Positions 19,468-34,947 of a DNA stretch of 64,000 bases are shown here, one piece after another (position 1 is the stretch's first letter; the number at the start of each line of letters is the position of its first letter). The notes beneath the pieces are model-generated. The model was not told where the DNA came from. It worked only from the letters and a program-made list of their open reading frames with translations, and ran no database searches. A program made the position numbers and the translations under genes. The stretch comes from Candidatus Heimdallarchaeum aukensis (GTDB lineage: Archaea > Asgardarchaeota > Heimdallarchaeia > Heimdallarchaeales > Heimdallarchaeaceae): positions 1,568,001 to 1,632,000 of the forward strand of contig CP084166.1 of the NCBI GenBank assembly GCA_021513695.1, read 5' to 3'.

Positions 19468-20127
19468 ATGGGTATGAAAAACTGGTTATTTGGAACCAAA
19501 CGCAAGGATGATGCTGAAGCTTTAGCTACACTCAAAGCTCAGATCAATCGATATGAGCACGAGTCCCGCAATTTAGAACGTCAAGCTGATGAACAAAAAT
19601 CTTTAGCTGCTAAGATGTTAAAGTCGGGTAATAAAGCTGGAGCTAAACAAGCTCTTAAGCGTCGAGCTATTTATATGAAACGTTTAAATCAGGTTCAAAA
19701 TATGCTAATGAACCTTCAGAGTCAGATTGATAGTATTCAAACTGCAACCTCTACTGTTGAAACAGTAAAGGCAATGGAGTTAGGTACGAAAGTTGTCAAG
19801 ACGAAGATGCAAGAAGTTGATGTAGAGAAAACTGAACGTGTAATGGATGAAGTTATGAGTCAACGTGATGAAATTGAAATGATGACAGAAGCTTTATCTG
19901 ATACTGCACTAAGTGAGAGCATTTTAGATTACGAAGATGATGTCGCAATTGATGATCAACTTGCTCAATTAGAAGCCGAGATGAATCTTGGTAAAACAGA
20001 AGAATTACCAGATCTTTCAGATCTTCCTTCAACTCCATCAGAAAAACCGACTGAAAAAGAAGAAGATACTTCTGACCTTGAAGCCGAATTAGCTTCTCTT
20101 AAGAAGAAGTTAAGTGATGACAAATAA
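19468..20127 (+). CDS. ESCRT-III, Vps20/32/60 (Snf7/CHMP4)-like protein
   Basis: AKQALKRRAIYMKRLNQVQNMLMNLQSQIDSIQTA aligns by eye with CHMP4 ALQALKRKKRYEKQLAQIDGTLSTIEFQREALENA. The C-terminus is acidic with a terminal amphipathic helix (DLEAELASLKKKL). Confidence 0.85.
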   Translation: MGMKNWLFGTKRKDDAEALATLKAQINRYEHESRNLERQADEQKSLAAKMLKSGNKAGAKQALKRRAIYMKRLNQVQNMLMNLQSQIDSIQTATSTVETVKAMELGTKVVKTKMQEVDVEKTERVMDEVMSQRDEIEMMTEALSDTALSESILDYEDDVAIDDQLAQLEAEMNLGKTEELPDLSDLPSTPSEKPTEKEEDTSDLEAELASLKKKLSDDK

Positions 20128-20254
20128 TAATAATCAAATTCTTTTTTCAATTCTTTTTTTCATCATTTTAGAAACGAACAGTTTTTTAACGATAATGATG
20201 TTACTAGTTTAGTAATTCAATTAATAGGATTATTCAGTTAGAGAGGTTAAAGAA

Positions 20255-21400
20255 TTGAGCGCGCAAGGACTGATTGAACACGCACGTAAATTTGCAAAAA
20301 AAGCTTATGAACTTGATAAGGCAAAACAATACAATGAGGCAATACCACTTTATCTCGACGCTGCAGAAGCTCTAATGAAAGCAATAAAATTTGAAAGAAA
20401 TCCACAAGTGGGAAAGACATTAAAGAAAAAAGCAGAGATGTACATTGAACGAGCAAAAGATCTAAAAGAAATTATTGAGAAAAAAGCTGAAAAGGGGGCA
20501 GAAACAGGGTCAGACGAAGAATCTGATAAATTAGAAGGAGCAATTAGCGATATCATAGTTACAGAAAAGCCATCAGTTACTTTGGATGATATTGCAGGAC
20601 TAGAAGAAGCAAAACGGAATCTTCGAGAAGCAATAGTGTTACCTCTTGTAAGACCAGACTTATTTAGTGGTGCAAGAAGACCATGGAAAGGGATTTTACT
20701 TTTTGGCCCCCCAGGATGTGGAAAAACTCTTTTAGCAAAAGCAACAGCTGCAGAAGTAGAAGCTACGTTTTTTAATGTTAGTGCGTCCGCGGTTATATCC
20801 AAATGGTTAGGAGAATCTGAAAAATTAGTTAATACATTATTTAAAATTGCTCGTGAAAGGCAACCAAGTATAATTTTCATAGATGAAGTAGATGCTCTTA
20901 CCGGAGCACGTGGTGGCGAGCATGATGCTATGCGCAGAGTTAAAACTGAATTATTAACTTCTATGGATGGTTTATCTAGCTCTGCTCAAGATCGTCTTGT
21001 AGTTATTGGGGCTACTAACCTTCCTGAGTCTATTGATGGAGCTTTTCGCCGTCGTTTTGAGCGTCGTATTTACATTAAGCTTCCAGATTTTGAAGCGCGT
21101 AAAGCTATCTTTCAACTAAATGTCAAAGGAGTGGACTTAGCTCCCGATGTTGATTTTGAATCTTTAGCAGAGATTACAGAAGGTTATTCTGGAGCAGATA
21201 TTGCTATGGTTTGTCGCGATGCTATTATGACTCCTATTCGTGAACTTGATTTATCAGGAGACATTCATGACCCCAATATTAAAGCCAGACCAGTTACACA
21301 AAAAGATTTTCTTGAGTCTATTCAGTCAGTTAATCCTTCTGTAAGTGCAGAAGAAATCGAGAAATATGAGAAATGGAATGAAGAATTTGGTTCAGCGTAA
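20255..21400 (+). CDS. vps4: Vps4-like AAA+ ATPase with N-terminal MIT domain
   Basis: MIT-like helices AKKAYELDKAKQYNEAIPLYLDAAEALMKAIKFERNP. Walker A GPPGCGKT and Walker B IIFIDEVD. The C-terminal helix EEIEKYEKWNEEFG matches the Vps4 pattern. TTG start preceded by GAGAGGT. Confidence 0.95.
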   Translation: MSAQGLIEHARKFAKKAYELDKAKQYNEAIPLYLDAAEALMKAIKFERNPQVGKTLKKKAEMYIERAKDLKEIIEKKAEKGAETGSDEESDKLEGAISDIIVTEKPSVTLDDIAGLEEAKRNLREAIVLPLVRPDLFSGARRPWKGILLFGPPGCGKTLLAKATAAEVEATFFNVSASAVISKWLGESEKLVNTLFKIARERQPSIIFIDEVDALTGARGGEHDAMRRVKTELLTSMDGLSSSAQDRLVVIGATNLPESIDGAFRRRFERRIYIKLPDFEARKAIFQLNVKGVDLAPDVDFESLAEITEGYSGADIAMVCRDAIMTPIRELDLSGDIHDPNIKARPVTQKDFLESIQSVNPSVSAEEIEKYEKWNEEFGSA

Positions 21401-21412
21401 AAGGGTGTTTTT

Positions 21413-21433
21413 ATGATTTACCTTTTTACGTAA
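21413..21433. repeat. Left terminal inverted repeat of element B
   Basis: ATGATTTACCTTTTTACGTAA. The reverse complement of 23311-23331 is ATGATTTACTATTTTACATAA. Confidence 0.7.
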
Positions 21434-21707
21434 GTTTTTCGCACTCGGTCTTTCAAGGGAGAAAACAGGAGTTTCATCACTTGATAACTCAACCACAACA
21501 TACAATGAAAGGAAACGTGGTTAAGACAGACGTCATACACGAATCGTGGGAATCATAAAGAAGGAAAAGAAAAAAGTAAGAAAGGAGAAAAGAAAGGAGG
21601 TTATCTCCTTCTTTATTCTACTTTCTTTTCTTTCCTTCACTCCACGAGAGACGAAAAAACAAACAAATAATCCTCTAACAAGAGAGAATGTAAGTTTATA
21701 TTTTCAT
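21413..21707 (-). ncRNA. Candidate omega-RNA/reRNA scaffold of element B (decayed copy)
   Basis: The non-coding stretch between the tnpB stop and the element end shares conserved blocks with copy A. The CTTAACC/GGTTGAG helix at 21488-94/21519-25 stays paired only in the tnpB-sense RNA, through a U-G wobble. Confidence 0.3.
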
Positions 21708-23161
21708 CTACTGGGGCTGCAACCAATGGCTGAGCCCTTGGCAAACAGTGAAATGAGTGAGACTAAATTTACGACCAGTGAGTAGATCAGTAATAGTTGT
21801 TGCACGGGGGCGGAAAAGAGAACTAAGGAGCAGACGAGCGATATTCATTGCTCCTGTTAGATCAGAGTGGAAGGTGTAATTGCAAGAGGGACAATAAACT
21901 AACCCTCTAACGGGGCGGGTAACTTTTTTTCCGCAACGGGCACAGTGAGATGATGTTCCTCTTTCCTCTATCGTCAGAATTCGGTGAGAGGGAAAACCTC
22001 TAAGTATTAGTGCACGACGGATAAAAGAAAGAACAAGAGCATAGTTCCACTGGTGAAGTTTTCTTCGTGACTTGCGATTAGTTACTCCCTTATTTTTTTC
22101 TCGTCGAATGTATTTAGGATAACCTATAACAACGAAAAGATTATAGATCCGAGCATAAACCTCTATTGTCCACACGATAGCACTTACAAATTGATTGATA
22201 TACGCTCGTCTGACGTTTCTATACCTCCGACGGAGACGTTTGAGAAAACGGTAAACTTGGTGTTTTTTACCCGATTGGTCGTTTAAAGCTGCTTTCCTCT
22301 GAAGACGGGAAAGTTTGAGTTTATATCGATGATTAACTTTATTCCACTGTTTGGTATACTAGAACTTTATTTCTTTACTTGTTACCTTCTTTTTCGGGGT
22401 CAGTAGCACTTCTACCGCAGGAATGTTTATCCCTAGATCTATTCCCAGCACAGCTGGGGGAAGAAAAGAAGAGTCAGAAGAAAGATTATCTCCCTGAAGG
22501 AAAGAAGAAGGAAGAACTTTTGAATGAAAATATATCCACCATTCACGTGTAGAACGTTTGTATCTTATTTCTAAACTTTTTACTCTTTCTTTAATTCTTT
22601 TTGATGAAACTCGCTCATCTCTAAAGGTAACCACAATCGCTGATGAAAACGTGTTTTTCTTTTCCACCTATCTAACGAGTCTCGTATTCCTACCCACCAA
22701 CGAGAAAGAGTGTTATTCTTATCTTTTGGTAGATGGACGAGGATGAACCTTTTTTTATTAATTAATTGTCTTCTTGCTCTCTTTCTTGGAGGACGAGTAT
22801 TGTTAGGTCTATATCCTTGCTCATATAGTTGCACAGCTATATCTCTACATTCTTGAAACTCATCGTGAGAACAATAGGGAAACATTTTCTTCATATCGTG
22901 AGGAACAGTCGTTCTTCTTTCTTCCTCTTTTTTTACTCTCGAGGTCGTTAATGTCAATTCGTCTAATTTTCCTTTATGTACTTTTATTTTCCCTTCTTTT
23001 GCTTTAATACCTATTTTTTTTCTGTTATGGTGTATAATTCTCACATACTTTTCTATTATTCTAGTATCTCTCCCCGTTATTCTCCTTAACTTTTCTTTTT
23101 TTCTCGTCGTCAATACTTCATTCTTCACTCTCACCTTTAACGTTTTGACGACGTCCTCCAT
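21708..23161 (-). pseudogene. tnpB: tnpB pseudogene (frameshift plus premature stop)
   Basis: Three track ORFs (22580-23161, 22359-22667, 21708-22175) together reproduce the 484-aa copy-A protein. There is an indel near 22585-22595 relative to copy A. TGG became TAG at 22359-22361 (KFWYTKQ in A, KF*YTKQ here). Confidence 0.85.
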
Positions 23162-23310
23162 CCTTTTTTTCTCCTCTTATTTTACTCTCTCTTTTTTTCT
23201 ATTTTTTTCTCTTCTTTTACTTCTTCTCTTCCTCATTATACTTTTTTTCCCTATAAAAAGTCCTTTCTTTTCTTTTTTTCTCATTATTCTTCCTCAATTT
23301 TTATATAAAG

Positions 23311-23331
23311 TTATGTAAAATAGTAAATCAT
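23311..23331. repeat. Right terminal inverted repeat of element B
   Basis: See 21413-21433. The terminal ..TCAT abuts a G, so the first ATG of the next ORF (23330) is built from the element end. Confidence 0.7.
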
Positions 23332-24130
23332 GGCTACAATGGAAAAACAAAAAGATAATGAATTTGAGCAAATTGATCTTGAAAAATTGAAAGAAGAAAA
23401 GAAAATATCAGAAGATAAGCTTAAGCTTATTGAAGCCAGTATTAAGGGATTAAAAGTTTCAGAAGAAGAACTGAAGTCCACGAAACCTATTGTTAGAGAA
23501 GAAGCAAGATTAGAACTAACAGAAGACACAAAGACGAAGCTAATTAAAGAATTTGAGCAAAGTTTACCTGATTGGGTTAACAAGCCTTGGATGTATGTCA
23601 CCCCAAAAAAGGCAAATCAAGTTGAGTCTTGGTTAGACAGTTGGTCATCAGTCATGCTTGATTATACAAAGAAATTTGTTATTCATATTGTTAATGTCAA
23701 TTCTCTTAGAGAAACTTATCCTTTTTGTAATAAGAAAATAAGAAAAGAACTTACCATCGATCAAATTCGTGATATCATCGATTTTCTTGAAACAAAGGGT
23801 TTTGCTCTTTGGATAAATGATAGGACAAAATTCTTTGAGAAACTTTTTGCAAAGATACTTGGAAAACCTTTAACAAAAAAGATCCGTGCAAAGATAGAAT
23901 GGAAAACAAAAGAAGAATTTGCTGAAGATTTACTTAAATGGATGATTGAAACCGGTAGAGTAGTTGAAGTTCACTCTTTATATGATTTAACAAAATATGA
24001 ACAACCCTGGTCTTCTTTACCTTCAGATGATTTAATCCATGTATGCAATTTACTCGTAGAAAAAGGTTCTGCTAGATGGTTAAATAGAGAAAGAACTATA
24101 ATTTCCTTTGAAGCAACAAAGGTATTCTAA
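23330..24130 (+). CDS. Vps25-like ESCRT-II subunit (two winged-helix domains) with a charged N-terminal extension
   Basis: The C-terminal 170 aa align by eye with human EAP20/Vps25: VESWLDSWSSVMLDYTKKF vs QLAAWCSLVLSFCRLH, DIIDFLETKGFALWIND vs VLEELRKKGNLEWLDK, and WKTKEEFAEDLLKWMIETGRVVEVHSLYDL vs WRRPEEWGKLIYQWVSRSGQNNSVFTLYEL. The native start may be the ATG at 23339. Confidence 0.7.
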   Translation: MATMEKQKDNEFEQIDLEKLKEEKKISEDKLKLIEASIKGLKVSEEELKSTKPIVREEARLELTEDTKTKLIKEFEQSLPDWVNKPWMYVTPKKANQVESWLDSWSSVMLDYTKKFVIHIVNVNSLRETYPFCNKKIRKELTIDQIRDIIDFLETKGFALWINDRTKFFEKLFAKILGKPLTKKIRAKIEWKTKEEFAEDLLKWMIETGRVVEVHSLYDLTKYEQPWSSLPSDDLIHVCNLLVEKGSARWLNRERTIISFEATKVF

Positions 24131-24183
24131 CTTTAATTTTTATTTTAATTTTATTTATTTACTATTTTTTGTGATGTAATGCT

Positions 24184-24621
24184 ATGTTTAAAAATTATAT
24201 ATTGAATAGACTTTTGAGATTTATGTCTTTAGACGATGAAGAATTACAAAGGATTCGAGAAAAAAAGGCACAACAACTTAGGCAAATTTTAGAACAGAGA
24301 AAATCAAAAATGGAACAACTTAAACAAGAGGAAACAGCGCCAAAAAGCATTACAAAAGAGGACAAGTATCGTTTAATGAATTATTTTCTAACTGATGACG
24401 CTTTTTCTTATTGGAAGAGTCTATATGAAAATCCACAAAAGCATAATACAGCAGAAACAATTTTCATTAATTTGCTCTATCTGATTAAGATTGGTTTTAT
24501 GGAAGGAAAACTTATCTCTCTTCTAGGAATTAAAAAATTAGAAAGAAAAATAGATAATATTCCTTCTAAAATCACAATAAAGAGAAAAGGAGAAAAAGAA
24601 AGATCCAAAGTTTTGGATTAA
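24184..24621 (+). CDS. PDCD5/TFAR19-like double-stranded-DNA-binding family protein
   Basis: DDEELQRIREKKAQQLRQ..., then a helical core (LMNYFLTDDAFSYWKSLYENPQKHNTAETIFINLLYLIKIGFMEGKLIS...KITIKRKG). These parallel PDCD5 (ELEALRRQRLAELQ ... [41 protein letters not shown] ... VKFNRR). The start may be Met14. Confidence 0.6.
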   Translation: MFKNYILNRLLRFMSLDDEELQRIREKKAQQLRQILEQRKSKMEQLKQEETAPKSITKEDKYRLMNYFLTDDAFSYWKSLYENPQKHNTAETIFINLLYLIKIGFMEGKLISLLGIKKLERKIDNIPSKITIKRKGEKERSKVLD

Positions 24622-24697
24622 TAATTGACTTTTACTTATTAGGTTACATTTATTTAGGATAATGAAAATAAAGTATTAGAAAGGAGCTGATGGATAA

Positions 24698-24934
24698 ATG
24701 AAGTTGAGTATTGTTACCGCAATAGGAGGAGGTCTTTTAGAATTAGATGTTGATAGCCATCAAACAATTGCACAACTTAAAAGAGAAGTTTCAAGAATTA
24801 AAAAGATACCTGCAAATACAGTTATTTTGGTTCATCATGGTCAACAGTTAGATGATGGTGAAACAATTAAGAGTTGCGGATTACAAGAAGGAGATAAACT
24901 CTATCTAATTGCAAGAACAAAAGGTGGACTTTAG
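24698..24934 (+). CDS. Ubiquitin-like beta-grasp protein ending ...RTKGG-L
   Basis: 78 aa. The pattern matches ubiquitin (TIAQLKREVSRIKKIPANTVILVHHGQQLDDGETIKSCGLQEGDKLYLIARTKGGL vs [55 protein letters not shown]). AGGAG lies upstream of the ATG. Confidence 0.85.
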   Translation: MKLSIVTAIGGGLLELDVDSHQTIAQLKREVSRIKKIPANTVILVHHGQQLDDGETIKSCGLQEGDKLYLIARTKGGL

Positions 24935-25009
24935 CTTTTCTATTTCAAAATTTTTTTAGAAGAATAGAAACTGTTTTATTACTTCTAAAAGATATTTTTG
25001 TGAAAGTGG

Positions 25010-26014
25010 ATGTCTAAAGAAGGTAGATATGCGAGACAGACTCTCATACCTGGTTGGAATCAGAAGAAACTCAACAAATCAACAGTTATTATTGTTGGTG
25101 TGGGAGCAATTGGATCATATGTATCAACGATTTTAGCTTCTTCAGGAGTAAAAAATCTCATTCTAATTGATTTTGATACTATTGAAATCTCTAATCTTAA
25201 TCGTCAATTACTATTTCGGGATGGAGATATTGGAAAATCCAAATCTGAAATTGCAGCTATGCGATTATCGGAACTAAATCCAGATATTAACATTACCTTT
25301 CATCATAAGAAGATGCAAGATTTACCTATTTCTATTTACAAAAAAGCAGATGTCATTGTGGCTTGTCTTGATACCTTCATTGGAAGAAGATGGATAAATT
25401 CACTTGCTGTAAAAATAAACAAACCTTTAATTTTAGGTGGAATGTTTGCTTTTCTAGGAGATGTTCAAGTTGTTTTACCAAAAAAAACTGCTTGCTTTGA
25501 TTGTCAACCTTTAGTTGCAGAAAGAGAACTTGCGCAAGCTTGTACTCCATTCGGAGAAGAAAGGAAGAAAAACAGAGAAGAAAAAGAGGATGAAGCGAAA
25601 TTACCATCTGTAGCCACATTGTCTGCGATTATCGGAGGAATTATGGCACAAGAAGCCTTAAAACTTCTTTTAGACATAGGTGAACCAATCAAGAATTATC
25701 TTTTCTATGATGGATTACATAATGCAACAACAATAATTGAACTTGCAAGAAGAAAAAAAGATTGTCCAACTTGTGGAGAACTATATGAGTTGGAACAAGT
25801 CGAATTTGTGGTAAATAAAGATAATACCGTCAAAGAACTATTAATCCAATTAGGTTTACAATTCGGACTTGAGAGCCCAGACATTATGATTAAAGGGAGG
25901 ATACTCCCTCACGATTCAAAAATCCAAGAACTAGGTATAAAAAATAACATGAAGGTTTTTGTAATGGACAAAAATTTAGCTTCACCAATCAAGTTAAAGT
26001 TAAAGATTGAGTGA
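25010..26014 (+). CDS. E1-like ubiquitin-activating enzyme (ThiF/MoeB fold) with C-terminal beta-grasp/UFD-like domain
   Basis: Rossmann motif VGVGAIGSYV, then DFDTIEISNLNRQLLF. Zinc-type cysteine pairs CFDC and CPTC. A charged crossover-loop insert (EERKKNREEKEDEAK) follows ACTPF. The last ~70 aa (VKELLIQLGLQFGL...MKVFVMDK) look like a beta-grasp domain. Confidence 0.85.
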   Translation: MSKEGRYARQTLIPGWNQKKLNKSTVIIVGVGAIGSYVSTILASSGVKNLILIDFDTIEISNLNRQLLFRDGDIGKSKSEIAAMRLSELNPDINITFHHKKMQDLPISIYKKADVIVACLDTFIGRRWINSLAVKINKPLILGGMFAFLGDVQVVLPKKTACFDCQPLVAERELAQACTPFGEERKKNREEKEDEAKLPSVATLSAIIGGIMAQEALKLLLDIGEPIKNYLFYDGLHNATTIIELARRKKDCPTCGELYELEQVEFVVNKDNTVKELLIQLGLQFGLESPDIMIKGRILPHDSKIQELGIKNNMKVFVMDKNLASPIKLKLKIE

Positions 26015-26025
26015 AAAAAGAAAAT

Positions 26026-26751
26026 TTAGGTGTGTGACAGTCCAGGGAAATAATATTTAGTTCCTTCAGCATAGGAACTATCTACTCTTGCTATACCATT
26101 TTCTTCAAAAAATGATAAGCAACGATTAATTCTTTCCTCTGCCCACCCTGTTCTAAGTAATAGATCTTCTTTTGTTACAAATCCTGTTCTTGAAGCAATG
26201 TTTAATATTACATCATGGTCGGGACTGAATTCAACAGGAGCAAATTCTACTAGTTTCACTCCAGATTCTAAAACTTTGAAAGGTGGAATTAATTTTGAAT
26301 TTATGAGTTTCTCTAATGAACGATACAAGTCATCAATTGTAACTAGTTTTCCAGGTCTAGTTTTATTTAATTGGGTAAACAATTCACCTACAGACATTAT
26401 ACCTCCATTTTCTTCTATAAGTTTTTGACCCAAATCCATGATTTCGTTTGCTAAAACATCATAGAAACCTTTTCCTGTTAATCTATCTTTTAGAGTTGGA
26501 GCTTCTTTCCATTCATATCTCCCTATTTCTGTAGGTAAGCCTAGTTCTTCTCGCAGGCCAGCAAGTTTTTCATAATATTCTTTATTTTCAACTATTTTAT
26601 CACCATATTTCTTTTCAAATTTCTTTAGTTGCTTTTTAACTTGTTTAATATTTTCCAACATTTGTTCTAATTCTTTTATCATTAATTCGGCTTCTTTAAC
26701 TTGGAAAGCTGACTTCACTTTTAATTTCTTTTCAATATCTCTTAAGCCCAA
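26026..26751 (-). CDS. EAP30-domain ESCRT-II subunit (Vps22/Vps36-like)
   Basis: By-eye alignment to SNF8/EAP30: FYDVLANEIMDLGQKLIEENGGIMSVGELFTQL vs [33 protein letters not shown], and DHDVILNIASRTGFVTKEDL...W..ER....L..FEENGIARVD vs DHTVVLQLAEKNGYVTVSEI...W..ER....L..LLKEGLAWLD. An N-terminal coiled coil is present. Confidence 0.8.
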   Translation of the reverse strand: MGLRDIEKKLKVKSAFQVKEAELMIKELEQMLENIKQVKKQLKKFEKKYGDKIVENKEYYEKLAGLREELGLPTEIGRYEWKEAPTLKDRLTGKGFYDVLANEIMDLGQKLIEENGGIMSVGELFTQLNKTRPGKLVTIDDLYRSLEKLINSKLIPPFKVLESGVKLVEFAPVEFSPDHDVILNIASRTGFVTKEDLLLRTGWAEERINRCLSFFEENGIARVDSSYAEGTKYYFPGLSHT

Positions 26752-26823
26752 CTTTAATCACTATTTTTTATTTGTCAGTGAGATATAAAAAATATACTAT
26801 TTAATTTCGCAATTAGCTTAGAG

Positions 26824-27132
26824 TTAAAAAAGGAGAGGAAGTCTTCTAATCCACTCTTTAATTGAATTCATAAGCTTTTTAGATTCATTTGGAGGAAGAA
26901 AAGCTGCTAGTTTGTCTTTATAGTTTTTGTATAGTTTTTGATAAACGCTGTCCATTTCATCAACAATTGAATCATTTACCAAATTGATTTTTTTAACAAG
27001 ATGTTTTATCTCTTCCAACTCTTCTAAGATGTATGAACAGTCAATTTTTATTTCTAAGAGATCCATCAACTCGAATAAACTATCTTTTGCTTTATTATAG
27101 GTATTTTCTAAAGATTTTCTCCTAGAAATCAT
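26824..27132 (-). CDS. Small all-helical protein (102 aa) between the ESCRT-I-like and ESCRT-II genes
   Basis: Heptad-like, charged helical sequence. It has its own SD-like GAGGAG 6 nt upstream of the ATG. No family recognised. Confidence 0.5.
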   Translation of the reverse strand: MISRRKSLENTYNKAKDSLFELMDLLEIKIDCSYILEELEEIKHLVKKINLVNDSIVDEMDSVYQKLYKNYKDKLAAFLPPNESKKLMNSIKEWIRRLPLLF

Positions 27133-27168
27133 GTTTACTCCTCTAAAAAGGCTGGATAAAAGATAGGA

Positions 27169-28638
27169 CTACATATCTTTTAAAATTCGTCTAAATTCGT
27201 TTAACCATCTTGATGCTTGGAATTCTAGTTTTTCACAATCGTCTTCATTTATTATTTCACTTGGTTTATAATTTGAAAGAATGTCTTTCCAGTTTTTCAT
27301 ATCGCTGAGCATCCAATGATCTTGCGGAATAGATGGAAACGAGTGCAAAACATGAATTAGCTCTTCTACGTCAGCCAACAGCAAATCAGCTCGTGCGACT
27401 GATTTAAGCCTTGTTAGATCAATTAATTCAATTGCAGCTGAAACAAAATCAGCTGTTTTTACAGGCATTTTCTTTAAGGATTCAAATGGTATCATTTCAA
27501 CATCTTTAGTTCCAGTTCCTTCAGCCATTTGTAGCAATCTCATTCCTTTGTCAAATCTATTTAGCAGATTTTCTTGCTCTATAAACGAATCGAGATCAAA
27601 TCCACCTAATTGTTCCAGTTTCATTCTTGTTTTGAAAACTGTTCTTATTAGTGATCTTAACTGCTTTTTATATGCAACTTGCTCAATCTCACCATTTTCA
27701 TACCCTCTCGCTAAATTATCTAATGTCACTATTGCTGCATATAAATCAGCTTCAAAATCTAATCTTTTATCTAAATCACTAGGCATTACTTGTCCTCCAA
27801 CATTTTCTAAATAAGCTAATTTTTTATTTGTCTTATAACTTTCCACTGAATATTTTCTATAAAGTTTCAAGTAATCAACACTTGAAAGATCTCCATCATC
27901 AAATTTCTCATTTAATAGCTCTAATAAGTCATTAGATGCTCTTGAACTTGCTTTTAAATCATCGGTTACAGAAATTGTAAGTTCTTTTAATGAATGTGAA
28001 GGCTCAGCTTTCTTGATTAGAGCAGCTCTTTTTTCCTCAATTTGTTTATTTAGTTCGTTTATCTGCTGCTGATACGCTTCTATCTCTGCTTCAATAGTAC
28101 TTTTTTCTATCGATGTTTGACTCCGTTCATTAAAGGATGGTACACTTTGCTTACGTACAGTGTGACGTGAAACTGTTCTTGGTTTCATCGGTTGAACTAC
28201 AGATCTAGACACACTCCTAGCTGTAGACATATGCTTTGTTCTTAATGGTCTTGCAGGAACATTAGCAAATAATCGCCGAATATCATTTATAACTTGATAA
28301 ATATGATAGCGTGGTTTCCATTGAGCGAGTATTTGCAAACTAAGAAAGTCATTGTCGTCAACATTAGGATGATTTACTTTAGGAGTAATTTCAACTTGAG
28401 GAGGAATTCTTGGGAACTCTGGAGAGATATATATTGTAGCATAAACAGTTATCTTCGTTCCTTGAATTATCCCTACAGGGCCTTTCCACTTTCTTAAATT
28501 GCCTCCTACTGGCTCAAATCCTTCAACATTATTATAAATTAATTGCATCTCATTAGCAAGAATCTGATCTAGAGAAATTTGTCTCACCTTTACTCTTCTA
28601 TTATTGTTATAAACTTCAAAGTTTAAAAAATATTGCAT
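27169..28638 (-). CDS. ESCRT-I-like fusion: UEV/E2-variant domain + coiled-coil stalk + Vps28-like domains
   Basis: Residues ~45-125 have a UBC fold (KWKGPV..GT...V...I....FP..PP.V.....V.HPNV) with Ser100 where E2s carry the catalytic Cys (DFLSLQIL vs GSICLDIL). A coiled coil spans ~170-205. The C-terminal ~200 aa align by eye to Vps28 (DLYAAIVTLDNLARGYENGEI...Y vs ELYSLIITLDHLEKAYLKD.I...Y, plus a C-terminal helical bundle). Confidence 0.75.
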   Translation of the reverse strand: MQYFLNFEVYNNNRRVKVRQISLDQILANEMQLIYNNVEGFEPVGGNLRKWKGPVGIIQGTKITVYATIYISPEFPRIPPQVEITPKVNHPNVDDNDFLSLQILAQWKPRYHIYQVINDIRRLFANVPARPLRTKHMSTARSVSRSVVQPMKPRTVSRHTVRKQSVPSFNERSQTSIEKSTIEAEIEAYQQQINELNKQIEEKRAALIKKAEPSHSLKELTISVTDDLKASSRASNDLLELLNEKFDDGDLSSVDYLKLYRKYSVESYKTNKKLAYLENVGGQVMPSDLDKRLDFEADLYAAIVTLDNLARGYENGEIEQVAYKKQLRSLIRTVFKTRMKLEQLGGFDLDSFIEQENLLNRFDKGMRLLQMAEGTGTKDVEMIPFESLKKMPVKTADFVSAAIELIDLTRLKSVARADLLLADVEELIHVLHSFPSIPQDHWMLSDMKNWKDILSNYKPSEIINEDDCEKLEFQASRWLNEFRRILKDM

Positions 28639-28729
28639 TCAAAAAAAAGAGTCTTTTCTTGAGAAAAAAATATATGAAAAAAAATTGATTATAATTCTAA
28701 ATTACAATAGAACCTAGGAATAAACTCTT

Positions 28730-29272
28730 TTACTTTCTATTTTTGACTAAAAGTGTAGCTAGTTTCACAAATGCTTCTTGAACATGTTCTCCTGTAAGTG
28801 CACTTGTTTTTATGAAATCCAAACTATTGATTTTGTTTTGTAATGATTTACATTCATCATCTGATACAGCAATTTTATCTTCTAAATCATTTTTATTTCC
28901 AACTAAGATGGTAAGGGTGTTCTTTCCACAGTTTTTAACAAGTTCAGAGTTCCATTTCTCTAGATCAGTTAGTGTTGAATTCCTGGTTAAATCGAAAACC
29001 ATCAGTGCTGCTTTTGCTCCTTTAAAGAAAGTATGTCTTATAAACCTAAATCTATCTTGTCCTGCTAGATCCCAAATTGAAAGAGCTACAACTGTATTGT
29101 CCTCTAATGTAACAAATTTCTCACTCGGTTCCATACCTATTGTCATCAGATAACTTTGTTCAAAACGATTATGAACAAAACGTTGTACAAGAGATGTCTT
29201 TCCTACAGCGGCGGCACCTAATAGAAGTATTTTGAAATTGAAATCAGGACGAATTGAACGCATTATTCTCAA
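28730..29272 (-). CDS. Rab/Ras-like small GTPase
   Basis: G1 GAAAVGKTS, G3 WDLAGQD, G4 GNKND and G5 TSAL. By eye it aligns end to end with Rab-type GTPases. There is no C-terminal Cys prenylation motif. The likely start is the ATG at 29263 (MRSIRPDF...). Confidence 0.9.
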   Translation of the reverse strand: MRIMRSIRPDFNFKILLLGAAAVGKTSLVQRFVHNRFEQSYLMTIGMEPSEKFVTLEDNTVVALSIWDLAGQDRFRFIRHTFFKGAKAALMVFDLTRNSTLTDLEKWNSELVKNCGKNTLTILVGNKNDLEDKIAVSDDECKSLQNKINSLDFIKTSALTGEHVQEAFVKLATLLVKNRK

Positions 29273-29275
29273 CTT

Positions 29276-29572
29276 TTACATTTTTTTTGCTTTTACAAGC
29301 TCTTCTTTTAAACTTTTAAGATAGTATGTTTCAAAATTTTCTTCTGCGCGTTTAATAGTAGTAAGAGAAATACAGAGATCTAATATGAATTCATATTGTT
29401 CTTTTTTCTCTTTCTGTGGTTTGAATGCTTTAAATTTTTTTAATAAATACTCGGCTAACTTTGACGCTTCTTTTTTTGTTAATGTTCCTTGCTCATATAA
29501 ATTAATAATTAACTCCATTTTCTCTATAGTAATATCATTGTTAATCTCTTTTAACGACAAAATTTTACTCAT
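29276..29572 (-). CDS. Small helical hypothetical protein (98 aa), first gene of the GTPase/ESCRT-I/II strand
   Basis: Clean ORF ending a few nt before the GTPase start. Lys/Glu-rich helices. No family recognised. Confidence 0.5.
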   Translation of the reverse strand: MSKILSLKEINNDITIEKMELIINLYEQGTLTKKEASKLAEYLLKKFKAFKPQKEKKEQYEFILDLCISLTTIKRAEENFETYYLKSLKEELVKAKKM

Positions 29573-29791
29573 ATGCTATCTATTCATTTTTTTCGGTTAA
29601 TATATGTTTTGCTGTTAAACTGGTTAGAAAATTGCTATCAGGGACTTATAATTAGATCAATAAATCAGATATTATATTTAAAATTGAGTAAGAAATTTCA
29701 ACAAGGATAACCTTTAGAAAAAGATAAAATAACCAAATAACTATTTTTGGGAGAAATATAAATTTAAAAATGGAAAAAAAAAATAATTTTA

Positions 29792-30499
29792 ATGACAAAA
29801 AAAACAATACTTGCTTGTTTTGCCCATCCTGATGATGAATTGGGTTGTGTTGGAACATTAGCAAACCATGCAAAAAATGGAGATAGAGTTGTAATTGCAT
29901 GGACTACTAGTGGTGAGATGGCTTCTTTTTTTGAAGGGATGAGTTTTGAAGAAGTAAAAGATATTAGAGAAAAACAAGGAAGAGAAATCGGTAAAATCAT
30001 AGGAAGTAATGTAGAAACTATTTTCTTAGGTTATGGTGACACAGAAGTCATTCCTACTAGGGAAAATGCTATTAAAATGGCAAAAATAATTGCTAAAATT
30101 AAGCCAGATGCCGTTATTAGTTGGGGATTTAATAATCGACACCCAGATCATAGAGGAACAGTACAATTATTGTATGATGCTATGACATATGCTAGAATCC
30201 CAAGAATAACAAGTCCTGACCCTCCTCACAGACCTCCATTTCATATACCCATGTTCTTATATTATGAGAAAATCAGCCCTTTACGAACAGTTTACGTAGA
30301 TATTAGTGAAACTTATCCTCAGGTAGAAAAAGCGTTTAGACTTTACGCTGATTTCTATGGATGGTCGGTAAGTGATTGGATTCATGTAAGAAGAAGAACA
30401 GATGGAATGGATTGCGGAGTAAAATTCGCAGAGAAATTTAATGTTTTTTCAAGATATGAGCCATATTCATCTTTATTACCAATAAATAATGATGCATAG
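29792..30499 (+). CDS. PIG-L/LmbE family N-acetylglucosaminyl deacetylase
   Basis: Signature AHPDDE (LACFAHPDDELG) and a later HPDH (NRHPDHRGT). 235 aa. Confidence 0.85.
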   Translation: MTKKTILACFAHPDDELGCVGTLANHAKNGDRVVIAWTTSGEMASFFEGMSFEEVKDIREKQGREIGKIIGSNVETIFLGYGDTEVIPTRENAIKMAKIIAKIKPDAVISWGFNNRHPDHRGTVQLLYDAMTYARIPRITSPDPPHRPPFHIPMFLYYEKISPLRTVYVDISETYPQVEKAFRLYADFYGWSVSDWIHVRRRTDGMDCGVKFAEKFNVFSRYEPYSSLLPINNDA

Positions 30500-30538
30500 A
30501 AAAATCTAGAAAAAATCCAGTGCTGATTTACTTTTTTA

Positions 30539-31162
30539 TTATTTTTCATCATCAGTTTGCTTCTCTTCTTTTTCTTCTTCATTTTCTTCTTCAAAGAAGT
30601 CATCATCAAACATTAATACACTGTCTAAAACAGAGTCAAGGGAAGGTCTTTCAGGAGGAGTTAATGGTATATCTGCTTTATCTGCAACAGAAATATCTAA
30701 AGATGAAAGATCTGCTCTCGCTCTTCTTCTCGTTGTTGGAGTCGTACTAACATATTGAATATTCTTTAACATTGATTTAACAGAACTGATTTCTTCTTTC
30801 AAATCTTTCAGAGAACTGAGTGCATTAATTTTTTCTAAAAGCTCATCTACTTTCTCTAACTCTCTTTTGGTTTTCTCTTCAAACTTTTTACTTGTTTCAG
30901 TTATCTTTGCAAACTGGCCTTCAGTTATGTTTATTCTTCTAGGAATTGAGGGTTCAGTGGGTGGAAAAAACAATGCAGGAGATGCTTTTAATTCTTCAAG
31001 AGAACCAAATTTTTCACTATGGTGTGCCTTGATTGACGCAAGAATTGCAGTTATAGGGTTTCCATATTCCGTCATTAAATCTTCAATCATATCCCATATT
31101 GCTATAGGAATTGGTACTTCTATTATTCTAGCTATCCTTTGCTTCTTTTTTTGAGAATACAT
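30539..31162 (-). CDS. Hypothetical protein with central coiled coil and strongly acidic C-terminal tail
   Basis: 207 aa. The N-terminal region could be ribbon-helix-helix-like (RIARIIEVPIPIAIWDMIEDLM), which is a weak call. The tail is FDDDFFEEENEEEKEEKQTDDEK. Confidence 0.5.
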   Translation of the reverse strand: MYSQKKKQRIARIIEVPIPIAIWDMIEDLMTEYGNPITAILASIKAHHSEKFGSLEELKASPALFFPPTEPSIPRRINITEGQFAKITETSKKFEEKTKRELEKVDELLEKINALSSLKDLKEEISSVKSMLKNIQYVSTTPTTRRRARADLSSLDISVADKADIPLTPPERPSLDSVLDSVLMFDDDFFEEENEEEKEEKQTDDEK

Positions 31163-31397
31163 TATTTTCTACCAGATTAATTAGTAATTTGAGTATTTAA
31201 TTAAAGACCACTACTTTACACATCTCTGATAATACTTCTCTGTATATAAATATACTTTTTAATCTACTAAAATCAAAGAATGATAAATATTAGACAATAA
31301 TAGGAATTTTAACCTAATTAAAAAACAAACTGTTAAAATAAGAAGATAAGGTAGAAAGGAAAGATCCTTTCTCTCTCTCCCTTTTAATAGAATTTTC

Positions 31398-31670
31398 TTA
31401 TGCAGTGTCTGTTACTTTGCTTTCTTCTTGTAGGAACTCAAAAGTTTCACGTAACTCAGGAGCTAAGTAATAATAGACCGACCGCATATCTGATAGATTA
31501 GACATTTTCTTTAAAATGCCTTTTTCTAGAAGGCGTCTAATACCATAACGAACTGTTCGTTCTGGTTGTTCTACAGATGCTAAGATCTGTTTCTGTGTCA
31601 TTGGTCCTTTTTCGTCCAATACTTTTATTATATCTTCTCCGCCTCGGGGTAATTTTCGTCTTTTCATCAT
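31398..31670 (-). CDS. Small winged helix-turn-helix DNA-binding protein
   Basis: 90 aa. DIIKVLDEKGPMTQKQILASVEQPERTVRYGIRRLLEKGILKK is a typical wHTH (MarR/TrmB-like) core. AGGTGA lies 3 nt upstream of the ATG. Confidence 0.65.
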   Translation of the reverse strand: MMKRRKLPRGGEDIIKVLDEKGPMTQKQILASVEQPERTVRYGIRRLLEKGILKKMSNLSDMRSVYYYLAPELRETFEFLQEESKVTDTA

Positions 31671-31692
31671 GATTCACCTTTTTTTTGTTCAT

Positions 31693-31709
31693 CTAGTGTT
31701 TTACACTAG
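31693..31709. promoter_or_regulatory. 7-bp perfect palindrome (CTAGTGT-ttt-ACACTAG) 22 nt upstream of the wHTH gene start
   Basis: 31693-31699 is the reverse complement of 31703-31709. Its position in the 5' region of a DNA-binding protein gene suggests an autoregulatory operator. Confidence 0.3.
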
Positions 31710-31767
31710 CTTTAACACATGCATATTGAGCGTAACTCAATCAAACTACTGGGTTTATAAACTTTTG

Positions 31768-31851
31768 CCTAGTCCGAGAGCATCTCTGCTAATGCAATGA
31801 ATACGTATCATTGTTGCGTATGTTTATCCATACACACAACGCGGACTTAGG
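31768..31851. ncRNA. Cloverleaf-like 84-nt element of unknown nature (not a canonical tRNA)
   Basis: The closing stem is CCT-AGTCCG / CGGACT-(T)-AGG. It encloses three hairpins: AGAG-cat-CTCT, CAATGA-atacgta-TCATTG, and GTATG-tttatc-CATAC. GC is above local background. There is no T-loop GTTCRA, no D-loop and no proper spacers. Confidence 0.15.
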
Positions 31852-31964
31852 AATTCGCCCAAACCCCAAATTTATTGAAGTTACTGTTACTCAGTATTTA
31901 CTATTCTCATCTAAGTATATAATGATTTCTATGTAACAAAATAAAAAAATTATATATATTTAAC

Positions 31965-32867
31965 CTATAAATTATTTAAAAAATCTCTTATTCTTTGAAG
32001 AGCAAGTCTACTTTCTGGCAACATTTTTCCAAAGAGAGTGAAACAGTGTGTCATTTCTTCCCAAATATCTAGCTCCACATTTACACCTTGTTCTAGTGCT
32101 TTTTTTGCGAATCTTATTGAATCATCGAGTAAAATTTCAGAGGTTCCAACTTGGATAAATATTGAAGGTAGACCACGAAGGTCACCAAACAAAGGGGACA
32201 CTAAGGGGTTTCTAGGATTTTGTCCTTGTAGATACATTTCGGCGGCAAATTCTAGATTCTTTTTTGATAACTGGGGATCTTCATCTTCTTTAGTAAGAAC
32301 TGATTCACCAGATAAGGTTAAGTCAGTCCAGGGAGAGATACATATTCCTGCCCTAGGAAGAGGTTTTCTTAATGATTTCAAGTTGAGCATTGTAGATAGT
32401 GTCAATCCTCCTCCTGCAGAGTCACCCATTATGATTACTTTTTTTGGGTTAAGTTCCAGATCGCCTATCAAGTTCAAATATGCTTTTGTTGCATCTTCAA
32501 GAGCTGCAGGAAAAGGAAATTCTGGAGCTAAACGATAATCAAGAAGTAGTACTTGCGTTTCAGTTATCAGTGAAAATCTTCCTGCAAAAGCTCTATGCGT
32601 TTTTGGAGATCCAATTACATATGCTCCCCCATGTAAATATAAAATAGTATATTCAGATTTCATGTAACCGATCTTTGTTGGATATAACCATTCTGCATTT
32701 AAATTATTTATTTCAGTTTTTTCAACAGTTATTGCTTTTGGTACTTTTAAAATAGAAAGAGTTCTCTCTAAAATGTGCCTTTTTCTTTCTACACTCCTGT
32801 CTCCAGTAGATTTTACGGGCAGAGAACGTAAAAGATTTAACAAAATTTTTGCTTTACGACTAACCAC
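31965..32867 (-). CDS. Alpha/beta-hydrolase fold-3 esterase/lipase (HSL family)
   Basis: Oxyanion-hole box YLHGGAY (an HGG motif) and nucleophile elbow GDSAGG. A late acidic residue and His (EEMTHCF) are also present. 300 aa. Confidence 0.85.
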   Translation of the reverse strand: MVSRKAKILLNLLRSLPVKSTGDRSVERKRHILERTLSILKVPKAITVEKTEINNLNAEWLYPTKIGYMKSEYTILYLHGGAYVIGSPKTHRAFAGRFSLITETQVLLLDYRLAPEFPFPAALEDATKAYLNLIGDLELNPKKVIIMGDSAGGGLTLSTMLNLKSLRKPLPRAGICISPWTDLTLSGESVLTKEDEDPQLSKKNLEFAAEMYLQGQNPRNPLVSPLFGDLRGLPSIFIQVGTSEILLDDSIRFAKKALEQGVNVELDIWEEMTHCFTLFGKMLPESRLALQRIRDFLNNL

Positions 32868-32912
32868 AATAACAAAGAATTACTACATAAAACATAAATG
32901 TTTTCTTTGGAC

Positions 32913-32935
32913 ATGATTTACTTTTTTCCGTAAGT
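32913..32935. repeat. Left terminal inverted repeat of element A
   Basis: See the mobile_element entry; 20/23 match to the inverted right end. Confidence 0.75.
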
Positions 32936-33173
32936 TTTTCGCACTCGGTCTTTCAAGAGAGAAAAACAATAAAATAGCTTAATCGCTTGGTAACTCAACC
33001 TAAACATACAATGAATGGGAGTGGTTGAGACAGACATCATACACGAATCGTGGGAATCATAAAGAAGAAAGGAAGAAAAAAGTAAAACCTTTTTTCTTTT
33101 TTCCTTCACTCCACGAGAGACAAAAAAGAAAGACTAACTCTAACACAAGAGGATAGAATTAGTTTCTTTTCGT
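32913..33173 (-). ncRNA. Candidate omega-RNA/reRNA scaffold of element A
   Basis: A 261-nt non-coding stretch between the tnpB stop and the element end. Its blocks are conserved with copy B (CGCACTCGGTCTTTCAAG, CATACACGAATCGTGGGAATCATAAAGAAG, CCTTCACTCCACGAGAGA). Conserved hairpins: CTCAACC/GGTTGAG (32994-33000 / 33023-33029) and a purine/pyrimidine hairpin at ~33066-33106. Confidence 0.4.
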
Positions 33174-34628
33174 CTACTGGGGCTGCAACCAATGGCTGAG
33201 CCCTCGGCAAACAGTGAAATGAGTGAGACTGAATTTCTGACCAGTGAGGTAATCAGTAATGGTGTTACATCGAGGACGGAAAAGATATCCAAGGAACTTA
33301 CGAGCGATATTCATTCCCCTTGTTAGATCAGAATGAAAAGTGTAGTTACAGGAAGAACAATGAACTAACCCTCTAACGGGACGGGAAACTTTCCTCCCGC
33401 AACGAGCACAGTGAGAAGATGTCCCTCTTTCCTCTATTGTTAATATTCGGTGAGATTCAAAGCCTCGAAGTATAAGTGCCCGACGGAGAAGAGAGAGAAC
33501 AAGAGAAAAATTCCACTGATGAAGTTTTCTGCGAAACTTACGATTACTTTTTTCTTTTTCTTTTCCTTCTCGAACATGTTTGGGGTAACCTACAACAACG
33601 AAAAGGTCATACACTTGTGCATAACTCTCTATCGTCTGCACAACATCGCTTATAAATTGGTGAATATACGCGCGTTTAACGTTTCTATACCTCCGACGAA
33701 GAAGACCAAGAAAACGGTAAACTTGGTGCTTTTTACCTAACTGGTCGTTTAAAGCTGCTTTCCTCTGAAGACGGGAAAGTTTGAGTTTATATCTATGATT
33801 GATTCTATTCCACTGTTTAGTATACCAGAATTTTATCTCTTTTTTTGTTAACTTCTTTTTAGGAGTCAGTAACACTCCTGCAGCAGGAATGTTTATCCCT
33901 AGATCTATTCCCAGCACAGCTGGGGGAAGAGAAGAAGAATTATCTCCTTGACTTGTGAGATAAAAGGAAGAAGGAGGAAGAACTTTTAATTGGAAATACA
34001 CCCACCATTCACGTGTAGAACGTTTGTATCTTAGTTCTAGACTTTTCACCCTCCCTTTCTTTAACTCTTTCTGGTGAAAATCGCTCATCTCTAAAGGTAA
34101 CCACAACTTCTGATGATAAGGTGTCTTTCTCTTCCAGGTATCTAACGAGTCTCTTATTCCTACCCACCAACGAGTAAGTGTATTATTCTTCTCTTTTGGT
34201 AGATGGACAAGAATGAACCTTTTTCCATTAATTAATTGCCTTCTTGCTCTCTTTATTGGAGGACGAGTAGGACGGGGTCTATACCCTTGTTCATATAATT
34301 GTACAGCTATATCTCTACACTCTTGGAATTCATTGTGAGAACAATAGGGAAACATTTTCTTCAAGTCGTGAGGAACAGTCTTTCTCCTCTCTTCTTCTTT
34401 TACTCTTGAAGTAGTCAGTGTCAACTCGTCTAATTTTCCTCTATGTACTCTTATTTTCCCTTTTTTTGTTCTTATACTTATTTTTCTTCTGTTGTGGTGT
34501 ATAATTCTCACATATTTTTCTATTATTCTCGTGTCTCTCCCCGTTATTCTCCTTAATCTTTCCTTTTTTCTCGTCGTCAATACCTCATTCTTTATTCTCA
34601 CTTTTAATGTTTTGACGACGTCCTCCAT
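33174..34628 (-). CDS. tnpB: TnpB-like RNA-guided endonuclease family protein (OrfB, RuvC + zinc ribbon)
   Basis: 484 aa. RuvC-I is LGIDLGINIP. The zinc ribbon is CARCGRKVSRPVRGLVHCSSCNYTFHSD. RuvC-III is HSDLTRGMNIA. The N-terminal KTLKVRIKN... is typical of TnpB. Confidence 0.9.
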   Translation of the reverse strand: MEDVVKTLKVRIKNEVLTTRKKERLRRITGRDTRIIEKYVRIIHHNRRKISIRTKKGKIRVHRGKLDELTLTTSRVKEEERRKTVPHDLKKMFPYCSHNEFQECRDIAVQLYEQGYRPRPTRPPIKRARRQLINGKRFILVHLPKEKNNTLTRWWVGIRDSLDTWKRKTPYHQKLWLPLEMSDFHQKELKKGRVKSLELRYKRSTREWWVYFQLKVLPPSSFYLTSQGDNSSSLPPAVLGIDLGINIPAAGVLLTPKKKLTKKEIKFWYTKQWNRINHRYKLKLSRLQRKAALNDQLGKKHQVYRFLGLLRRRYRNVKRAYIHQFISDVVQTIESYAQVYDLFVVVGYPKHVREGKEKEKSNRKFRRKLHQWNFSLVLSLLRRALILRGFESHRILTIEERGTSSHCARCGRKVSRPVRGLVHCSSCNYTFHSDLTRGMNIARKFLGYLFRPRCNTITDYLTGQKFSLTHFTVCRGLSHWLQPQ

Positions 34629-34780
34629 CTTTCTTTCCTCTTTTCTTATTCTAAACTTTTTTCTTCTCCTTTAATTATACTTTTTTTCCCTATAAAAATT
34701 CCTCACTTTTTCTTCTCTCCCTCCCTCTTCCTTCCTTCTTTCCTTTCTTTTTTCGTTGCACTCTTCCTCAATTTTTATAA

Positions 34781-34803
34781 ATTTACGTAAAAAAGTAAGT
34801 CAT
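34781..34803. repeat. Right terminal inverted repeat of element A
   Basis: ATTTACGTAAAAAAGTAAGTCAT, the inverted match to 32913-32935. Confidence 0.75.
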
Positions 34804-34947
34804 TTATTATGCTTTTCTTTAAAGTTTTTACAGTAAGTGCTGAATGTTTCTATTTCATTTATCCCTGAAAGAGGACAATAGTATAAAAAAGTGTAAAAAA
34901 CAATAATTAAGAAAATATTTATAGTTTAACAAAAATAAAAAACATCA

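Follow-up and report, generated by a model that had tools for sequence, protein, structure and literature searches.

How a gene of the endosomal sorting complex required for transport (ESCRT) system comes to be parted from the neighbour that it directly follows in related archaea, and how it might still be expressed there, is the question raised by a 64,000-nucleotide stretch (the window; contig CP084166.1, positions 1,568,001 to 1,632,000) of the chromosome of the Asgard archaeon Candidatus Heimdallarchaeum aukensis. The window has a low GC content of 32.6% and contains an ESCRT cluster with two Snf7 genes, vps4, a Vps25-like gene and ubiquitin and E1-like genes, together with Vps22/36-like (EAP30) and UEV-Vps28 genes on the opposite strand. 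Between the vps4 stop codon and the vps25 start codon at 23330 lie 1,929 bases, inside which a tnpB gene is found on the minus strand in three open reading frame (ORF) pieces; the genome paper of H. aukensis (Wu et al. 2022, PMC8813620) does not mention an insertion at vps25. The explanation that we favour overall, and regard as probable though well short of certain, is that a TnpB-only insertion sequence (IS), here called element B, was mobilised in trans into the sequence T-AT-G, regenerated the ATG of vps25, and would now provide this gene with a promoter for a leaderless mRNA.

The insertion between vps4 and vps25

The features of the locus are as follows.

20255–21400, plus strand: vps4, encoding an AAA ATPase (Pfam AAA, MIT and Vps4_C); TAA stop codon at 21398–21400
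21401–21412, plus strand: original vps4-vps25 spacer AAGGGTGTTTTT, 12 nt, with a Shine-Dalgarno (SD)-like GGGTG at 21403–21407
21413–21414: left AT copy, common to both junctions, from the comparison of empty and filled sites; target duplication or crossover dinucleotide
21415–23329, minus strand: element B proper, 5'-GATTTAC...GTAAATC-3' in either orientation, a non-autonomous TnpB-only IS with 80.5% identity to its sister copy, element A
21413–21437: terminal inverted repeat of the right end (RE, in tnpB orientation), 25 nt, 84% complementary to 23307–23331, with which it pairs
23307–23331: terminal inverted repeat of the left end (LE, in tnpB orientation), including the right AT copy at 23330–23331
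21415–21707, minus strand: 3' non-coding region of tnpB, candidate omega-RNA scaffold, in which a variable hairpin at about 21584–21618 is expanded by 35 nt
21708–23161, minus strand: tnpB pseudogene, with 4 nt deleted near 22587 and TGG changed to TAG at 22359–22361
23330–24130, plus strand: vps25, Vps25-like ESCRT-II gene, intact, 266 aa (Pfam ESCRT-II, PF05871, E = 6.6e-16)

The winged-helix ESCRT-II domain and the ESCRT gene neighbourhood identify the product of the last gene as an ESCRT-II Vps25. By exact look-up of this 266-aa protein, we reached contigs in which the site is empty. In strains of about 98% identity (L001, L002, L004), vps25 starts 11 nt after vps4, the junction reading TAA-AAGGTGTTTTT-ATGGCGACAATGG, and in H. 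endolithica it reads TAA-AGAGGTGATTAT-ATGGCTACAATGG. The shared pattern is thus the TAA of vps4, 11–12 nt with an SD motif, and ATGGC(G/T)ACAATGG, and an identical 266-aa Vps25-like product is encoded at empty sites. Element B is absent from L001, L002, L004 and L020–L023, and L001 lacks both A and B. The adjacency of vps4 and vps25 is retained in all relatives examined with a spacer of 11–16 nt, including those whose Vps25 is only 55–57% identical, in which the 16-nt spacer contains GAGGT. The empty and filled sites compare as follows.

B site, empty: ...GCATAA-AAGGTGTTTTT-AT-GGCGACAATGG; filled: ...TTTTT-AT-[GATTTAC...GTAAATC]-AT-GGC
A site, empty (L001): GGAC-AT-TTATT; filled: GGAC-AT-[GATTTAC...GTAAGTC]-AT-TTATT

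On these alignments, B was truly inserted in the lineage of H. aukensis, and the gene junction that it entered is one conserved across the family. The TnpB insertion proposed in a preliminary description of this sequence is therefore genuine, and the empty sites that it predicted exist; the converse case, in which relatives would carry the same sequence without any homology to an IS, is excluded for the relatives examined. An assembly artefact was considered and ruled out by two independent junction contigs: the short-read contigs of run SRR15988954 contain the vps4/element junction in L047 and the element/vps25 junction in L003. Contigs of the same strain that were found with the Vps25-like protein break inside repeats and reproduce the latter junction (L003, at 100% identity, and L005), and the filled allele is the sole one present at 100% identity in two sequencing runs.

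The limits of B were defined by its alignment to element A (21413–23331 against 32913–34803) and by the empty sites. Element B spans about 1.9 kb, 21413–23331, from one AT (21413–21414) to the other (23330–23331), its left end being ATGATTTAC from 21413 and its right end ...GTAAATCAT at 23331; the earlier boundaries, 13 nt after the vps4 stop codon and at 23331, agree with the sequence. Self-comparison of the window produced one other copy, A, which aligns with B over the full length at 80.5% identity and whose TnpB is identical to UJG39587.1 of Ca. H. aukensis:

32913–34803, minus strand: element A, with an intact 484-aa TnpB at 33174–34628, flanked by AT, in a divergent intergenic region

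A codon-level alignment to this intact copy bears out the description of a dead tnpB with retained termini: the frameshift and the TGG-to-TAG change are the only two lesions in B, the inverted repeats are intact, and the C-terminal piece has the Cas12f1-like TNB zinc ribbon in Pfam. We also considered, and rejected, that the insertion is rendered harmless by a known RNA family or by a self-splicing intron, as an E-value scan of 20000–36000 against Rfam gave only chance miRNA/snoRNA-like matches, on a hairpin at 21548–21644.

The same description had called the insertion old. Between the tnpB genes of A and B, the ratio of non-synonymous to synonymous substitution rates (dN/dS) is 0.215 at a dS of about 0.5, so purifying selection acted on the gene in B through almost its entire history and its inactivation, with only two lesions, is recent. 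The 20% by which A and B differ therefore represents the divergence of subfamilies and not decay in place. Because the site is empty in the strains of about 98% identity, in H. endolithica and in more distant relatives, and because both AT copies and both inverted repeats are intact and the lesions are only two, the insertion is, from this comparison, younger than the split from the strains of about 98% identity. The opposite history, an ancient insertion that the relatives have lost by precise excision, strikes us as very improbable. It could appeal to the seamless excision of elements of this general kind, the IS605 and IS607 types, and to the lack of an intact or near-identical source of B, the proteins found in collections without the H. 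aukensis chromosome being at most 84% identical in amino acids to the repaired B and the ORF fragments of B having no record elsewhere. It could also appeal to the abrupt shift in divergence from the empty-site strain (L001/L002), which stands at about 5% over the final 400 nt of vps4, drops to 2.4%, made up of four synonymous changes, over the opening 170 nt of vps25, stays at 0–1% as far as about 31 kb and returns to 3–5% from about 31.5 kb. Yet it would require independent excisions in the strains of about 98% identity and in H. endolithica, while distant relatives share the tight SD-ATG junction, and it sits badly with the low dN/dS, with only two lesions in tnpB and with intact AT copies and inverted repeats. 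The mosaic divergence, with its left breakpoint about 150 nt inside vps25 and thus to the right of the insertion, suggests a recent homologous exchange in which a tract ended near the heterologous insertion.

The start codon and expression of vps25

In the preliminary description, the ATG at 23330 was a product of the insertion and the native start was probably the ATG at 23339. The comparison reverses these roles. The same ATG 23330 is present in every empty allele, 5–6 nt 3' of an SD motif, and the N-terminus M-[A/S]-T-x-E-K is found in nine of the ten retrieved Vps25 homologues, some of them just 52–65% identical, the tenth reading M-T-M-E-S-E-K; the Met at position 4, encoded by ATG 23339, varies among homologues. 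Since it is present in the empty sites and the N-terminus is conserved, ATG 23330 is by sequence comparison the native, conserved start of vps25, and should be retained as such in annotation. The insertion regenerated this ATG because AT stands at both junctions. For the same reason, AT being found only once in the empty site, the boundary can be drawn in two equivalent ways, and the earlier statement that the codon consists of two element bases and one host base is a valid drawing but only one of the two. At the left junction, the orphaned SD GGGTG (21403–21407) now precedes AT and the terminal G of the element, and a mini-ORF of six codons, ATG ATT TAC CTT TTT ACG TAA, is found at 21413–21433.

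The SD motif of vps25, the vps4 stop codon and the vps4 promoter are now 1.9 kb upstream of the vps25 ATG. Physical coupling to vps4 is lost and, judging from the arrangement, co-transcription is lost with it; no SD-like motif is found within 16 nt of ATG 23330. The plus strand of the element contains 20 T-runs of at least 5, 11 of them of at least 7, which corresponds to 10.4 per kb against 0–2.5 per kb in the genes of the operon. As oligo-T tracts terminate archaeal RNA polymerase, read-through across the element would be inefficient. The genes 3' of vps25 (24184 onward) have T-rich, TATA-like spacers of 53–76 nt of their own, and the effect is therefore probably limited to vps25. The earlier account, by which the insertion separates vps4 from vps25 and the genes behind it and removes their promoter, thus stands as to the separation from vps4. 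As to the rest, the spacer of 11–16 nt held no promoter, so that the losses are the SD motif and co-transcription, and the polar effect would hardly reach beyond vps25.

That account had also placed a TATA-like box at the canonical archaeal distance from the vps25 start. The box is there, 20 nt inside the left terminus of the element (in tnpB orientation), and is distinct from a second block further inside:

23298–23309, plus strand: outward TATA-like box TTTTTATATAAA, with the core TTTATATA at -30 to -23 of ATG 23330
23250–23260, minus strand: inner TATA-like block, CTTTTTATAGG then GAAAAAAAGTA, invariant in all copies, probable tnpB promoter

In an alignment of 10 left ends, the invariant columns are TTTTTATAG..AAAAAA, and the inner TTTTTATAGGGAAAAAAA block is shared by all copies. 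The outward core has the geometry of an archaeal leaderless promoter, an 8-bp TATA centred about 26–27 nt before a purine at the start codon: with C-A at -1/+1 of ATG 23330, transcription would start at a pyrimidine-purine step, on the A of the start codon itself. We compared this arrangement with 148 predicted gene starts in about 190 kb of Heimdallarchaeum sequence (the window and L006–L020). TATA-like hexamers peak 21–30 nt upstream of the predicted start codons, and an SD-like motif is found at -16 to -4 in about 24% of the starts, so that Heimdallarchaeum appears to use both SD-led and leaderless start architectures, with many leaderless genes. A match of at least 7/8 to TTTAWATA beginning at -32 to -28 is present at 12.8% of the starts and at 1.4% of all ATGs, a roughly ninefold difference, and the perfect 8/8 match at -30 seen at the vps25 junction is present at 1.4% of starts and 0.1% of ATGs. 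Given these rates, the geometry is that of native leaderless-type promoters and is unlikely to have arisen by chance.

In bacteria, transcription of neighbouring genes from outward or hybrid promoters in IS ends is classical (IS1, IS2, IS10 pOUT). As in those cases, the terminus of B has a promoter element that points out of the IS and is suitably spaced from the gene beside it. In contrast to them, the putative promoter would be of the archaeal TATA/TFB type and yield a leaderless mRNA, the first codon was rebuilt by the insertion, and of about ten copies compared, only two have the box. We consider it a real possibility, if somewhat short of an even chance, that the 20 oligo-T tracts on the strand in between stop most transcripts arriving from vps4 and that the TATA box of the element would then drive vps25 as a leaderless mRNA whose 5' end lies at the ATG or directly beside it.

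Several observations weigh against such a use of the box. It is found only in the H. aukensis copies A and B, eight other copies having TTTACA(A/G)(T/C)TG in its place (the H. endolithica version is TTTACAGCTG); since these eight include L044, the closest relative of A with a TnpB of 94% identity, the outward TATA is not a feature of the family, and since A has the box without an abutting gene start, neither is it an adaptation to the vps25 site. The sequence upstream resembles a transcription factor B recognition element (BRE) only weakly in either orientation, both the element and the DNA around it are rich in AT, attention fell on the box only post hoc, and its use as a promoter is something we infer purely from the letters. 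Intactness of vps25, which differs from the empty-site strains by four synonymous and no non-synonymous changes, says little, the insertion being recent. All this leaves room for a less likely but tenable alternative, a tolerated polar mutation of the sequenced H. aukensis population, hypomorphic or null, in which the TATA is inactive or serves only the element and vps25 is poorly expressed or not at all. The displacement of SD and promoter by 1.9 kb with many oligo-T tracts between them, a box that is not conserved and abuts no gene in A, and the uninformative ORF would all fit, and other copies of the family do disrupt genes, L012 among them. What speaks for a vps25 that is still needed and expressed is the conservation of its SD-spaced adjacency to vps4 down to 55% identity, suggesting that the gene matters, along with the perfect TTTATATA at exactly -30, found at just 0.1% of ATGs, and the filled allele as the one allele at 100% identity in both sequencing runs. 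Read-through from the vps4 promoter across the element, antisense to tnpB, followed by SD-less internal initiation at ATG 23330, seems to us improbable. The orientation would permit it, the plus strand of the element is non-coding, and archaeal oligo-T termination is often leaky; set against this are the T-runs on that strand (20 of at least 5, 11 of at least 7) and an ATG without SD within 16 nt, in a genus in which about a quarter of the genes have such a motif and in a gene that had one before the insertion.

An IS insertion in an operon is an ordinary event, but the comparative evidence is unusually clean here. In one of only two closed Heimdallarchaeum genomes, ESCRT-II vps25 has been uncoupled from vps4 while related strains have empty alleles that are nearly isogenic, a natural experiment that bears on the need for vps25 and on whether an IS-borne TATA can replace an operon promoter and SD by way of a leaderless mRNA. 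If the promoter reading is true, the insertion changed vps25 from an SD-led gene inside an operon to a leaderless one promoted by an IS, and this in an archaeon closely related to eukaryotes.

Ends, target and class of the element

The family to which B belongs has multiplied in Heimdallarchaeum. We compared 14 of its copies from H. endolithica and further metagenomic copies, the target counts being made on 16–17 of them. The terminal inverted repeats are 25 nt long in A (88%) and B (84%) and range from 23 to 34 nt at 82–88% across the family; a relative of 43% identity has terminal inverted repeats as well, of another sequence. The circle junction is predicted to read GTAAATC-AT-GATTTAC, which is perfectly palindromic. 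AT stands at both junctions in every copy that keeps both ends, with C before the left AT in 15/16 copies and G after the right AT in 13/16 or 13/17, depending on whether L044 is counted; for subsets of these counts, the tail probabilities are about 1e-9 (C, 13/14) and about 2e-8 (G, 13/16). From these flanks the target of the family is the palindrome C-AT-G. The site of B in H. aukensis is T-AT-G, the start codon of vps25.

PF07282 (TNB zinc ribbon) matches the C-terminal piece of B at E = 4.1e-10 and the intact A at 3.6e-6, with all four Cys invariant, and NCBIfam guided_TnpB matches residues 145–444 of A at E = 8.4e-21, its 74.7 bits lying below the curated cut-off of 100; Pfam OrfB_IS605 has no match on the TnpB of A. 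For RuvC, D242 (in IDLG) and D434 are invariant in 12 homologues, while the usual RuvC-II strand closes on an invariant Gly (G347) at the canonical Glu position, and another invariant Glu, E400, is found just before the zinc ribbon in the alignment of residues 340–400. This pattern looks like that of TnpB branches described as having a rearranged RuvC-II (Altae-Tran et al. 2023, PMC10691335), as far as the alignment allows a comparison. The 3' regions of 16 copies, 280–320 nt, are highly conserved, with a consensus fold of 59 pairs of which 8 show compensatory changes. They match no Rfam family, and have the appearance expected of a candidate omega-RNA scaffold.

In several respects the family resembles IS200/IS605 elements of the IS1341 group: a single tnpB of the TnpB/Cas12f type with a TNB domain, a structured 3' region that extends to the right end, seamless empty sites, C-A-T at the left flank and many diverged copies per genome. 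It departs from them in having inverted repeats of 23–34 nt instead of asymmetric ends with subterminal hairpins, in a palindromic target of which both flanks are constrained and which leaves AT at either junction, in the absence of any Y1 TnpA seen, and in the Gly at the canonical RuvC-II Glu position with another invariant Glu further on. IS607 elements combine a serine-recombinase TnpA with TnpB and use the overlap dinucleotide GG (Boocock and Rice 2013, PMC4058570). The identical dinucleotide at both junctions of our family, found once in the target, fits such a 2-nt serine-recombinase crossover, and the two also share TnpB as cargo, little other target specificity and the existence of archaeal members (ISC1904). 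However, by their published descriptions IS607 elements have asymmetric ends and no terminal inverted repeats (PMC6188088, PMC10691335), whereas our family has inverted repeats and a palindromic circle junction, and a serine recombinase gene was not found in the loci examined. Symmetrical ends have been reported for DDE-linked TnpBs such as the IS630-linked DDE-6 branch (Altae-Tran et al. 2023, PMC10691335). These are alike in that TnpB lies between inverted repeats with a 2-nt junction repeat in a 4-nt palindromic target. IS630 targets TA within CTAG. In contrast to IS630/Tc1-mariner elements, the family repeats AT (in CATG) and not TA, leaves no footprint and has no DDE gene near its copies. 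Taken together, ends and target fit neither IS200/IS605 nor IS607 cleanly.

It would be simplest to regard the family as ordinary IS200/IS605 (IS1341-type) members, moved as single-stranded DNA by a Y1 TnpA, with CAT as the target or target-adjacent motif (TAM) at the left flank and an RE that ends in CAT by chance. The tnpB-only make-up, the C-A-T directly 5' of the left end, the seamless empty sites and the database name of the homologues, 'IS605 OrfB family transposase', all point this way. We nevertheless judge it unlikely, because the right flank is constrained too (G in 13/16 or 13/17, the former at about 2e-8), making the target palindromic, and because the ends are inverted repeats of 23–34 nt without stable or conserved subterminal hairpins: single-stranded DNA folds of both ends in four copies had no shared subterminal hairpin, with 7/8 z-scores between -1.2 and +1.1. 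No Y1 HUH TnpA adjoins any of 18 copies or relatives, no serine recombinase was present in the loci examined, no DDE gene lies in or near any copy, and no second ORF is found in the 14 H. endolithica copies, 2 distant relatives or 3 metagenomic copies. A metagenome scan with the end sequence ATGATTTACYTTTTTNCGTAA returned tnpB copies, solo right-end fragments and otherwise just unrelated chance matches; a local scan produced no further element ends, a viral contig collection held no relative of the element, and the supplements of Wu et al. 2022 contain nothing searchable on transposase families. In our preferred explanation, B would thus have been moved in trans by a recombinase or transposase that works on double-stranded DNA and creates, or exchanges, a 2-nt stagger of AT, the candidates being a serine recombinase of the IS607 type and a DDE enzyme. 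This part of the explanation is weakened in two ways: as no transposase was found in the 18 loci, the end scan of the metagenome or the viral contigs, the mechanism is deduced from the ends and target, and the AT repeat is as compatible with a true 2-bp duplication as with a shared crossover dinucleotide.

One could also speculate, and we do so with considerable doubt, that the family is a new type of TnpB transposon, with inverted repeats, a C-AT-G target and a 2-nt AT, that can hit start codons and always rebuilds the ATG, and for which the left-end TATA of H. aukensis is a portable leaderless promoter. Independently of this, TnpB in Asgard archaea travels in elements with ends and a target outside the descriptions of IS605 and IS607, and their anatomy bears on how TnpB and its guide RNA have been coupled to different transposition chemistries.

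Other copies and neighbouring genes

A palindromic C-AT-G target means that one or both flanks read ATG outward from the element. Insertions exactly on the start codons of real genes were found in 2/16 copies, at vps25 and at an Rce1-like gene in L016 of H. endolithica; the probability is about 0.04–0.08 under a naive model, which ignores selection against intragenic insertions. As this is suggestive only, and not clearly above chance plus selection, we make no claim of an enrichment at start codons. In L016, the copy lies exactly on the ATG of the gene for the Rce1-like CAAX protease (5687–6481) with its right (omega-RNA) end adjoining, and the native TATA AAATAAATATAAAG has been moved 1.8 kb upstream, so that expression would require read-through from tnpB. 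The H. endolithica copy in L012 (about 3869–5691) splits an ORF that is in frame on both flanks, at a C-AT-A target; the family thus causes gene disruptions too. In L046 (1–2016), a copy from a metagenomic strain lies between an apparent tRNA 3' end and an rpoD-L18e-L13-S9 operon, its right end truncated where the scaffold ends after GTTTTCTCTC. Solo right-end fragments without tnpB, of 50–165 nt and comprising the omega-RNA-like region and the terminus, are found in L027 (2110–2273 and 2869–2921) and L010 (132–184), and may be remnants or stand-alone guide-RNA modules.

Within the window, element A lies between an alpha/beta-hydrolase gene (31965–32867, minus strand) and a PALP-domain gene (34948–35895, plus strand), with its right end 46 nt upstream of the hydrolase start. 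A third tnpB at 62247–63545 (minus strand, 432 aa) belongs to a different, more typical family, with PF07282 at E = 7.5e-19 and a weak OrfB_IS605 match, and is preceded by a similar purine-rich block and a TATA (GGGGTTTATATAGGAAAAAAAAGTA).

Behind vps25, the ORF at 24184–24621 matched nothing in Pfam at E <= 0.01 in either its 145-aa or its 132-aa form (start at 24223), which leaves its 'PDCD5' label unverified; gene callers choose the 132-aa start on related contigs, and a TATA-like box lies about 25 nt upstream of it. On the other side of vps4, the Snf7-vps4 intergenic region (20128–20254, against 7275–7368 of L001) is strongly divergent or rearranged, with 18.8% mismatches plus gaps and a break in the BLAST alignment, and the genes on either side of it are 98–99% identical between the strains.

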